From assembly GCF_003334255.1 (NCBI RefSeq), contig NZ_QOWU01000132.1: DNA of 2,594 bases; one strand, given 5' to 3'. This stretch comes from Escherichia coli (GTDB taxonomy: Bacteria; Pseudomonadota; Gammaproteobacteria; Enterobacterales; Enterobacteriaceae). The translations under genes were made by a program, and so were the position numbers. Positions 1 through 1,029 of this stretch are shown piece by piece (position 1 is the stretch's first letter; each line of letters begins with the position of its first letter). The notes below the pieces were generated by a model, which saw only the letters and a list, made by a program, of their open reading frames with translations, was not told where the DNA came from and made no database searches.

Positions 1-1029
1 CCTGAGCTTGGGCTGGTGGTCCTTAAGCCGGGCCGTGAATCCATACAGATATTTCATAATCCTCGAGTGCTGGTGGAGCCGGAACCGAAAAGCATGTGCG
101 GCCTGCCATCCGGAGTCGTCCCTGCCGTTCGCCAGCCGCTGGCGGAGGATAAATCATTACTGCCATTTTTCAGCAATGAGCGTGTGATTCGTGCTGCTGG
201 CGGCGCTGGTGCACTGTCTGACTGGCTGTTGCGCCATATTAAATCCTGCCAGTGGCCACACGGTGATTATCACCACAGTGAAACCGTCATTCACCGTTAT
301 GGTACCGGCGCAATGGTGTTGTGCTGGCACTGCGACAACCAGTTGTGTGACCAGACCTCAGAATCACTTGAGCAACTTGCTCACCAAAACTTGTCAGCAT
401 GGATGATTGACGTCATCCGTCACGCAATCAGCGGTACGCAGGAGAGGGAGTTATCGCTGGCCGAATTATCCTGGTGGGCGGTCTGCAATCAGGTGGCTGA
501 TGCGCTTCCGGAGTCTGTATTGTGTCGTTCACTGGGATTACCGGTGGAAAAAATCCGCTCCGTATACCGTGAGAGTGACATCGTACCGGGAGAACAGACT
601 GCCACCAGCATACTGAAGCAGCGCACAAAAAATATTGCGCTGCCACTTCACGTCCACCAGCAACAGCCCCCACTCCAGGAAAAGACGTTAGTAAGCATCG
701 CCGTTGATCCGGAGTCTCCGGCTCAGTATCTCCAGCGCCAGAAACCACAACGGGAAGAGATGCCTGTATACACGCGCTGGGTAAAAACGCAGAAATGCAT
801 GACGTGCGGTAATCAGGCAGATGATCCGCATCACATCATTGGTCATGGCCTGGGAGGTATGGGAACAAAGGCTGATGATTTGTTTGTTATTCCGCTGTGC
901 CGTAAATGTCATAACGAACTGCACGCCGGGGTAAAAGATTTTGAAGAAAAACACGGCAGCCAGCTGTTGTTGCTGATTCGTTTTTTAATGCACGCGAGAA
1001 ATTCGGGTGTCCTGAAGTGGAAAGCATGA
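1..1029 (+). CDS. Prophage nin-region protein with tandem HNH-like zinc-binding motifs (DUF968/YdfU-like, putative nuclease); possibly 5'-partial
   Basis: Long open frame ending at TGA 1027-1029. The ORF track starts it at GTG 16, but the frame is open back to base 1, so the true start may lie upstream of the window. C-terminal motif CMTCGNQADDPHHIIGHGLGGMGTKADDLFVIPLCRKCHNELH (nt 796-924) and a degenerate N-terminal copy SCQWPHGDYHHSETVIHRYGTGAMVLCWHCDNQLC (nt 244-348). Sits immediately upstream of rusA and Q, as nin-region genes do in lambdoid phages. Family name is from memory of motifs, not a search. Confidence 0.75.
   Translation, partial: PELGLVVLKPGRESIQIFHNPRVLVEPEPKSMCGLPSGVVPAVRQPLAEDKSLLPFFSNERVIRAAGGAGALSDWLLRHIKSCQWPHGDYHHSETVIHRYGTGAMVLCWHCDNQLCDQTSESLEQLAHQNLSAWMIDVIRHAISGTQERELSLAELSWWAVCNQVADALPESVLCRSLGLPVEKIRSVYRESDIVPGEQTATSILKQRTKNIALPLHVHQQQPPLQEKTLVSIAVDPESPAQYLQRQKPQREEMPVYTRWVKTQKCMTCGNQADDPHHIIGHGLGGMGTKADDLFVIPLCRKCHNELHAGVKDFEEKHGSQLLLLIRFLMHARNSGVLKWKA

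Follow-up and report, generated by a model that had tools for sequence, protein, structure and literature searches.

A YdfU-family (DUF968) prophage protein of Escherichia coli with a C-terminal zinc-finger HNH domain and a probable HNH-like module in its N-terminal domain

The stretch of DNA analyzed in this study (hereafter, the window) comprises 2,594 nucleotides (nt) of Escherichia coli (RefSeq assembly GCF_003334255.1, contig NZ_QOWU01000132.1), and its first gene, a ydfU-like gene of the DUF968 family at positions 1 to 1029, encodes the protein under consideration. Downstream of it, and likewise on the plus strand, lie a rusA-family Holliday junction resolvase gene (1030 to 1392), a Q-like late antiterminator gene (1407 to 2228), and a tRNA (2372 to 2447). 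The order ydfU, rusA, Q, and tRNA was also found in E. coli EC32 and in phage vB_EcoS-640R1, which bears out an earlier account of this DNA (the preliminary description) that had assigned the gene to the slot of the nin region preceding rusA and Q. Over nt 1 to 1400, the window matches a Qin-like prophage of the EC32 chromosome with 100% identity, the RefSeq annotation of that locus gives a gene order matching the remainder of the window, and the whole window is 98% identical to phage vB_EcoS-640R1, in which the first gene is labeled "putative YdfU family protein" in GenBank. DNA similar to nt 1 to 1400 was detected in 4,422 of 5,426 complete E. coli genomes (∼80%), often in several prophages per genome, as well as in Stx-converting phages.

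In the list of open reading frames (ORFs), the frame of this gene (frame 1) is already open at the first nucleotide and ends with a TGA codon at 1027 to 1029, and the 5' end of the gene lies beyond the window. The records of EC32 and phage vB_EcoS-640R1 annotate a GTG start codon that lies 30 nt before the first position of the window, giving a product of 352 amino acids (aa); on DNA identical to the window, this 352-aa gene occupies locus L002:5971-7029 of EC32, and the MRxLL N terminus of the product is kept among aligned homologues. Because the ORF was cut by the window edge, the length of 337 aa given in the preliminary description and its residue numbering had to be corrected: the first codon of the window is residue 11, and residue n of that description is residue n + 15 here. 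The protein is 100% identical to RefSeq WP_001538586.1, a "DUF968 domain-containing protein" of EC32. It comprises a family-specific N-terminal domain (residues 11 to 190 within the window; nt 1 to 540), whose residues 1 to 160 have no Pfam model, a Q/P-rich linker predicted to be flexible (residues 191 to 262; nt 541 to 756), and an HNH/His-Me finger nuclease domain (residues 263 to 344; nt 757 to 1002), which was delineated by Pfam, PHROG, BLASTP, phmmer, AlphaFold, conservation, and the literature.

Family membership was established by profile matches and by genomic setting. Pfam DUF968 (PF06147) matched the C half only, over model positions 1 to 169 of 171 (E = 4.5e-63, 212.8 bits), and PHROG 96 ("HNH endonuclease") spanned the whole length of the protein (E = 1.5e-158); the lambdoid prophage setting upstream of a Q antiterminator agrees with membership in the DUF968/YdfU family. 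Judged by sequence, the ORF is a YdfU-family (DUF968) allele of a Qin-like lambdoid prophage. YdfU of the K-12 Qin prophage (b1560; PF06147; His-Me finger group 7) is collinear with it over the full length, with 277 of 348 residues identical (80%) and no gaps, and likewise consists of an N-terminal domain, a linker, and a C-terminal HNH domain encoded upstream of a Q homologue in the same type of prophage. The two proteins differ at the second zinc knuckle, which is C-x-x-H in K-12 YdfU and C-x-x-C in the window protein, and the two loci differ in that K-12 ydfU is followed directly by ydfT (Q) without rusA, whereas rusA lies between the two genes in the window. Moreover, identity to K-12 YdfU (window positions 1 to 1029 compared with L006:5259-6305) was 87% over residues 1 to 240 and 61% over residues 241 to 352, and within the linker it was 74% over residues 191 to 240 and 50% over residues 241 to 262. 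At the sequence level, the window protein is a mosaic relative to K-12 YdfU, and the fact that the drop in identity begins in the predicted flexible linker suggests that the two modules have been exchanged independently. Several of the database proteins P0132 to P0138 share the YdfU N-terminal domain (∼200 aa) and have unrelated sequences as their C termini, including a tail with Q-like CxxCxGxG repeats (P0133) and a Gly-rich tail (P0132); proteins of this type may represent deletion fusions, frameshifts, or assembly chimeras.

The preliminary description had reported that the protein carries two copies of an HNH-like motif, D-x-H-H followed by a further His and by C-x-x-C-[DH]-N-[QE]-L-[CH], and a regular-expression search of the translation recovered both strings where they had been reported: copy 1, DYHHSETVIHRYGTGAMVLCWHCDNQLC, at nt 265 to 348, with a preceding Cys (C93) at nt 247 to 249, and copy 2, DPHHIIGHGLGGMGTKADDLFVIPLCRKCHNELH, at nt 823 to 924, with an upstream CMTC at nt 796 to 807. 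The spacer between the last His and the first Cys of copy 1 is 9 residues, shorter than the 10 or more in the pattern as proposed. For copy 2, which together with its upstream CxxC comprises C276-M-T-C279, D285-P-H287-H288, H292, and C310-R-K-C313-H314-N-E-L-H318 (nt 796 to 924), the assignment to the HNH/beta-beta-alpha-metal fold was supported. Within the C half, Pfam HNHc_6 matched with an E value of 2.8e-7 and Pfam HNH with 0.097, and the PHROG HNH families 131 (3e-8), 7370, 144, and 1271 matched residues ∼257 to 332. YbcO (PDB 3g27) aligned with residues 288 to 317 in a pairwise BLASTP comparison (E = 5e-6), and phmmer yielded alignments both to 3g27 and to EcoKMcrA (6ghc), the latter spanning the whole motif.

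The AlphaFold model of the full-length protein had a mean predicted local distance difference test (pLDDT) score of 84.6, with values of 41 to 67 over linker residues 221 to 260 and below 50 over residues 226 to 243. In the C-terminal domain, the predicted order was a helix (265 to 272), the C276-x2-C279 knuckle, strand beta1 (285 to 288, D-P-H-H), an omega loop with D303, strand beta2 (306 to 309), and a helix (311 to 319) starting with CxxCH-x3-H; these elements form a beta-beta-alpha core in which beta1 ends in the catalytic His. The canonical HNH residues of this copy were all kept across the family in the homologue alignment: H287 and H288 were each present in 21 of 24 homologues, D303 of the loop in 24 of 24, and the helix residues H314 and H318 in 21 and 22 of 25, respectively. 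The C-terminal copy is therefore a canonical zinc-finger HNH/His-Me finger. This assignment agrees with the literature, in which DUF968 and DUF1364 (YdfU and YbcO) form group 7 of the His-Me finger proteins (Jablonska et al. 2017, PMC5714182), and in which a zinc-finger HNH domain has been described in DUF968 proteins (Curtis et al. 2014, PMC4118853). When the full-length model was searched with Foldseek against the PDB, the top matches were IscB, I-E HNH Cascade, and Gme HNH, all weak (E values of 1 to 3); these HNH matches presumably stem from the C-terminal domain, and the search was considered uninformative with respect to the N-terminal module.

The N-terminal Cys/His module (residues 93 to 126; nt 247 to 348) consists of C93-Q94, Y100-H101-H102, two predicted strands (105 to 110 and 113 to 118), and C118-W-H-C121-D122-N123, and the motif of copy 1 is made up of D99-Y-H101-H102, H108, and C118-W-H-C121-D-N-Q-L-C126. 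In a first round of homologue searches, all of the relatives recovered were more than 92% identical and thus of little use for assessing conservation; conservation was scored in 32 diverse homologues of 25 to 54% identity and, for the site itself, in a wider set of 73 representatives covering it. C93, Q94, and C118 were invariant (32 of 32) and W119 was nearly so. In the same set, position 101 was His in 18 and Cys in 11 homologues, and position 121 was His in 19 and Cys in 13. A C-[HC]-C-[HC] arrangement at positions 93, 101, 118, and 121 was present in 61 of the 73 representatives, with H/C (37), C/H (13), and H/H (11) pairs at positions 101 and 121 and no C/C pair; Fisher's exact test on this His/Cys co-pattern gave 3.8e-7, a figure inflated by relatedness, as a neighbor-joining tree calls for only at least three changes per site. 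Given the invariance of C93, Q94, and C118, the N-terminal motif itself is, as read from the alignment, under selection. The module has four conserved Cys/His positions at which Cys and His interchange, and since interchange of His and Cys at fixed positions is a signature of metal ligands, we infer a structural zinc site, most likely formed by C93, H101, C118, and C121 (C93/[HC]101/C118/[HC]121).

The remainder of the motif behaved differently. H102 was His in only 28 of the 73 representatives (38%) and H120 in 64%; H108 was His in 3 to 5 of ∼30 homologues, position 110 was Tyr in 10 and His in 4 of 29, and position 126 was mostly Arg, with Cys in 1 of 32, namely, this allele. The N-[QE]-L element was poorly kept across the family in either copy. 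D122 (28 of 32) and N123 (24 of 32), together with W119 and H120, were common. Judging from these alignments, the D-x-H-H ... H ... [CH] elements are mostly unconserved in the N-terminal module, the last positions of beta1 (108 to 110), where a catalytic His or Tyr would be expected, are variable and show no conservation of either residue, and both the beta1 His and the H-x3-H of the helix are absent from this copy. The preliminary description had suggested that copy 1 may be degenerate and non-catalytic on the grounds that it lacks the first CxxC pair. The module does look non-catalytic in the model and alignment, yet the missing CxxC is not the reason: the zinc site looks complete, and the elements lacking are the catalytic His of beta1 and the H-x3-H motif of the helix.

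The fold of the N-terminal domain was examined with residues 1 to 192 modeled alone, so that the C-terminal HNH domain was excluded. This AlphaFold model had a pLDDT score of 92.2 and showed a helix (78 to 89), a loop with C93 and H101/H102, a tight hairpin (105 to 110 and 113 to 118), and a helix (119 to 125) running from C118-x2-C121, a beta-beta-alpha arrangement that resembles solved HNH domains. Against 48,164 PDB chains, HNH nucleases made up all 7 of the top 7 matches and 17 of the top 60. Foldseek against AFDB50 returned only YdfU-family proteins of Enterobacterales, and the names of cluster members with the N-terminal domain only were uninformative. One AlphaFold database entry, G1X2S6, is a 156-aa fragment consisting of the N-terminal domain only (150 aligned columns; template modeling score on the target, 0.90) and carries the UniProt name "HNH nuclease domain-containing protein," a hint that some signature database may recognize the N-terminal module.

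Sequence profiles gave no counterpart to this structural likeness. A phmmer search of the N-terminal domain against 1.84 billion representatives yielded 166 matches, all N-terminal in YdfU-like proteins and none bridging to HNH families. Pfam recognized only the edge of DUF968 at residues 160 to 191 of this domain, and none of 29 diverse N-terminal domains matched an HNH family in Pfam even at an E value of ≤0.1; PHROG, NCBIfam, and PDB profile searches likewise assigned the N-terminal domain neither to HNH nor to another family. Matches to S100-A9 and Glyco_hydro_42 (E values of ∼0.1 to 0.2) were treated as noise. Thus, profile search and structure prediction, the two checks that had been proposed for both copies, agree on HNH for the C-terminal copy, and for the N-terminal copy an HNH-like fold was predicted without a profile match.

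The N-terminal module is thus predicted to be HNH-like in fold, and because the positions expected to hold the catalytic His and the H-x3-H of the helix are not conserved, it is most likely non-catalytic. A different reading would make both modules active, YdfU being a double-headed nuclease whose N-terminal module cuts a second strand by means of a non-canonical site (H102, H120, D122, and N123). The frequency of D122 and N123 directly after the second ligand pair, in the place of HNH metal ligands, and the commonness of W119 and H120 would fit such an enzyme; the presence of H102 and H120 in only part of the representatives, the lack of a conserved His or Tyr where beta1 ends (positions 108 to 110), and the variability of the second helix ligand position (126) weigh in the other direction, and we consider a second active site very improbable.

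The preliminary description had further called the motif internally duplicated. The two copies were compared by BLASTP of the halves, by Smith-Waterman alignment with shuffled sequences, by hhalign of family subalignments (halves and cores), and by a DNA repeat search. BLASTP between the halves aligned only LCWHCDNQL with LCRKCHNEL (E = 0.36); the Smith-Waterman score of 30 compared with 27.3 ± 4.7 for the shuffles, 25% of which reached 30; hhalign of the N-terminal against the C-terminal family profiles gave P values of 0.38 and 0.27; and no DNA-level repeat was found between the two motif sites. The resemblance between the copies is thus without statistical support at the level of sequence or profile, and internal duplication is unproven. 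Nor does the alignment of one HH dyad with the other, on which the proposed register was built, appear to hold, as these dyads are probably not structurally equivalent: in the AlphaFold models, HH lies on beta1 (285 to 288) in the C-terminal copy and in the loop before beta1 in the N-terminal copy, where the first His alternates with Cys and the second is kept in 28 of 73 representatives. The structurally equivalent part of the two copies is probably, according to the models, the C-x-x-[CH]-[DH] element at the start of the helix.

Two explanations of the likeness were weighed on this evidence. A true duplication, in which one ancestral HNH finger was doubled within the gene and the N-terminal copy later lost catalysis and diverged, would account for the predicted architecture shared by both modules (a helix and a Cys, followed by a beta-beta-alpha unit whose helix opens with C-x-x-[CH]-[DH]), for the alternation of Cys and His at the fourth ligand position in both copies, and for the fact that the best local hhalign alignment, albeit non-significant, is colinear with the register of the preliminary description. 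The non-significant BLASTP, Smith-Waterman, and profile-profile comparisons speak against it, as do the failure of HNH profiles to match any of the 29 N-terminal domains (0 of 29 at E = 0.1), the lack of similarity between YbcO and the N-terminal profile (P = 0.31), and the different structural positions of the HH dyads; moreover, a fusion of unrelated treble-clef/His-Me modules would give the same picture, and we regard duplication as a tentative explanation only. The opposite explanation, which we hold to be just as doubtful, is a chance or generic likeness. On this view, the N-terminal module would be a structural zinc finger of a common type, either treble clef or zinc ribbon, within a helical DNA-binding domain; it would have no specific relation to HNH nucleases and would match the motif string by coincidence among Cys/His-rich segments. 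Here the uniformly negative sequence tests are as expected, and so is the partly allele-specific nature of the string match, C126 being Arg in relatives and N-Q-L being unconserved; in addition, His-Me fingers are derivatives of the treble clef (PMC5714182), and any generic treble clef would accordingly retrieve HNH structures in a fold search. What this explanation accommodates less well is that HNH nucleases, which account for few of the 48,164 PDB chains, supplied 17 of the top 60 and all of the top 7 structural matches, and that the match list is not dominated by treble-clef fingers other than nucleases.

The genes downstream of ydfU were analyzed for the context that they provide. The second gene matched PHROG 34 ("RusA-like Holliday junction resolvase") with an E value of 8.2e-56 and is named "RusA family crossover junction endodeoxyribonuclease" in RefSeq; it scored 80 bits against NCBIfam PRK09786, a K-12 RusA "exception" model with a 200-bit cutoff. 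By its sequence, it is a member of the RusA family and not the K-12 RusA protein itself. The TGA codon of ydfU (1027 to 1029) and the ATG codon of rusA (1030) abut directly, which suggests translational coupling. The rusA product is 120 aa long in the window and 126 aa long, overlapping Q, in the 98% identical phage. The pairing with rusA, from which the preliminary description had proposed a two-nuclease recombination/repair cassette, is real at this locus and has been described before (PMC5714182); it is, however, not an obligatory arrangement. In K-12, the DLP12 prophage (L007) has the analogous order ybcO, rusA, ylcG, and quuD (Q); a VRR_NUC nuclease gene follows one distant YdfU homologue (P0196), and rusA lies 2 kb upstream of another (P0188). 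Considering these cases and the absence of rusA from K-12 Qin, association with junction nucleases recurs but is not fixed.

The Q-like antiterminator, labeled "antitermination protein" in RefSeq, is context and not part of the nuclease; it matched PHROG 127 and 25523 ("anti-termination protein Q-like") with E values of ∼1e-111. Its product of 273 aa contains four CxxCxGxG zinc-finger repeats, which match the DnaJ cysteine-rich region at aa 163 to 218 (TIGR02349, E = 1.4e-6). Between Q and the tRNA, on the plus strand, a GC-rich hairpin, AACCCGCCGCCGAGCGGGTT, occupies positions 2309 to 2328 and is followed by a T-run up to 2335; this element (2309 to 2335) has the appearance of an intrinsic terminator and lies where Q would be expected to act. 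An Rfam Trp_leader match at 2229 to 2335 was weak and below threshold. The tRNA at 2372 to 2447 was called Met (anticodon CAT) by ARAGORN and is annotated as tRNA-Ile by RefSeq on identical sequence, and because of this disagreement it is probably a lysidine-modified phage tRNA of the ileX/ileZ type. A tRNA-like element at 2461 to 2521, covering positions 7 to 64 of the 71-position Rfam model with 31.2 bits (gathering score, 29), received no ARAGORN call and no RefSeq annotation and may be a decayed tRNA. On identical DNA, RefSeq places a tRNA-Arg at window positions 2548 to 2621, extending past the 3' edge of the window.

Comparison with known systems helped to place the protein among phage recombination nucleases. 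Lambda Rap/NinG (Pfam NinG, His-Me finger group 24) shares with YdfU the nin-region slot before Q and a C-terminal His-Me finger, and its cutting of branched DNA is the function proposed here for YdfU; an extra zinc finger has been predicted N-terminal to the His-Me finger of Rap (PMC5714182). Lambda NinG belongs to a different family, is 204 aa long, and has no YdfU-type N-terminal domain. Membership of the window protein in the NinG/Rap family (PF05766) was rejected, as no Pfam NinG match was obtained at an E value of ≤10, the outcome also of the NinG profile check that had been suggested beforehand, and hhalign of lambda NinG against the YdfU family aligned the first CxxC knuckle only (14 columns, P = 0.018). 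YbcO of DLP12 and phage 82 (DUF1364, PDB 3g27) is a protein of 96 aa, without an N-terminal domain or linker, and its sequence showed no similarity to the YdfU N-terminal module (P = 0.31 against the N-domain profile). The Orf-HNH fusions of Gram-positive hosts (Listeria, and Orf20 of Staphylococcus phage phiETA) have a C-terminal zinc-finger HNH domain of the same Pfam families (DUF968/HNHc_6), and in these proteins it follows an N-terminal DNA-binding domain within phage recombination modules (PMC4118853). Their N-terminal domain is Orf/NinB-like, whereas that of YdfU is HNH-like by predicted fold; an Orf/NinB-like N-terminal domain in YdfU was rejected, as neither a NinB nor an Orf match was found. 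Finally, inactive His-Me fingers that retain DNA or substrate binding are known from Smad MH1 and the nuclease-like domain of ENPP (PMC5714182). These have lost the catalytic His, and their retained binding is the role proposed for the YdfU N-terminal module. Neither in sequence nor in context are they related to that module, and they differ from YdfU in that its inactive module would share a polypeptide with an active HNH domain.

Taken together, we favor a reading, to which we assign a probability of roughly 0.6, in which the C-terminal zinc-finger HNH domain of YdfU is a catalytic nuclease, the N-terminal domain carries a zinc-stabilized, catalytically degenerate HNH-like finger along with helices for substrate recognition or oligomerization, and the substrate is a branched intermediate, as for Rap. 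The gene would be expressed as part of the early rightward operon, immediately ahead of rusA and Q, and its product would consist of two folded parts with a flexible linker of ∼70 residues between them. In the C part (∼263 to 344), a structural zinc would be held by the two CxxC knuckles; H288 on beta1 would be the likely general base, and the catalytic metal would probably be bound by H287, H314, and H318, with D303 in place of the HNH Asn, and this domain would cut DNA. In the N part (1 to 190), a beta-beta-alpha unit unrecognizable by sequence would be built around the C93/H101/C118/C121 zinc site, with the first His of the HH pair (H101) acting as a zinc ligand and not as a catalytic base. 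This unit would most likely serve as a non-catalytic structural, DNA-recognition, or dimerization module that gives substrate preference to a non-specific HNH domain. By position and family, the protein would process branched recombination or replication intermediates, like lambda Rap/NinG.

Several points weigh against this reading. The His/Cys co-pattern on which the zinc site is partly based may reflect as few as three changes per site on the tree. The good conservation of D122 and N123 beside the second Cys pair leaves room for a non-canonical active site in the N-terminal module. Adjacency to rusA is not universal, as seen in K-12 Qin, P0196, and P0188, which weakens an obligatory two-nuclease mechanism. 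Moreover, no biochemistry of any YdfU-type protein, including a published assay, was found in the literature searched. It is also conceivable, though unlikely, that YdfU has no part in recombination and is an HNH nuclease for degradation of host DNA, anti-defense, superinfection exclusion, or homing, considering that HNH domains serve many purposes and that the linkage to RusA varies. PADLOC gave no defense-system match, on which basis a role in a defense system was rejected; the gene is distant from terminase genes and sits among nin-region recombination genes beside junction nucleases (RusA in the window, YbcO-RusA in DLP12, and VRR_NUC next to a distant homologue). In addition, group 7 domains fused to Erf, Rad52, and RusA domains have been reported (PMC5714182; PMC4118853), and a role for group 7 in recombination similar to that of NinG has been proposed in view of its RusA and Q neighbors (PMC5714182).

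Overall, the original observation of two HNH-like motifs was partly confirmed and its interpretation partly supported. The C-terminal HNH assignment and the neighborhood of RusA and Q had already been published; what is new, and modest, is a conserved, previously unannotated Cys/His site in the first ∼160 residues, which is predicted to bind zinc within an HNH-like fold that lacks the catalytic residues. More speculatively, and with little likelihood in our estimation, YdfU could be an intramolecular His-Me pseudo-dimer derived from an ancient duplication, in which the dead, zinc-bound finger docks onto branched DNA and the tethered live finger nicks it, making the protein a structure-guided single-strand nickase that prepares for, or adds to, the resolution of junctions by the neighboring RusA- or VRR_NUC-type resolvase; if true, this would represent a new architecture of HNH enzymes and would give a function to a widespread y-gene of E. 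coli. YdfU-type genes are very common in E. coli, and the function of K-12 YdfU is only predicted. If confirmed, the arrangement favored here would identify the residues for catalysis and those for substrate recognition, as a handle for biochemistry, and would provide a case in bacteria in which a "dead" His-Me finger accompanies a live one.

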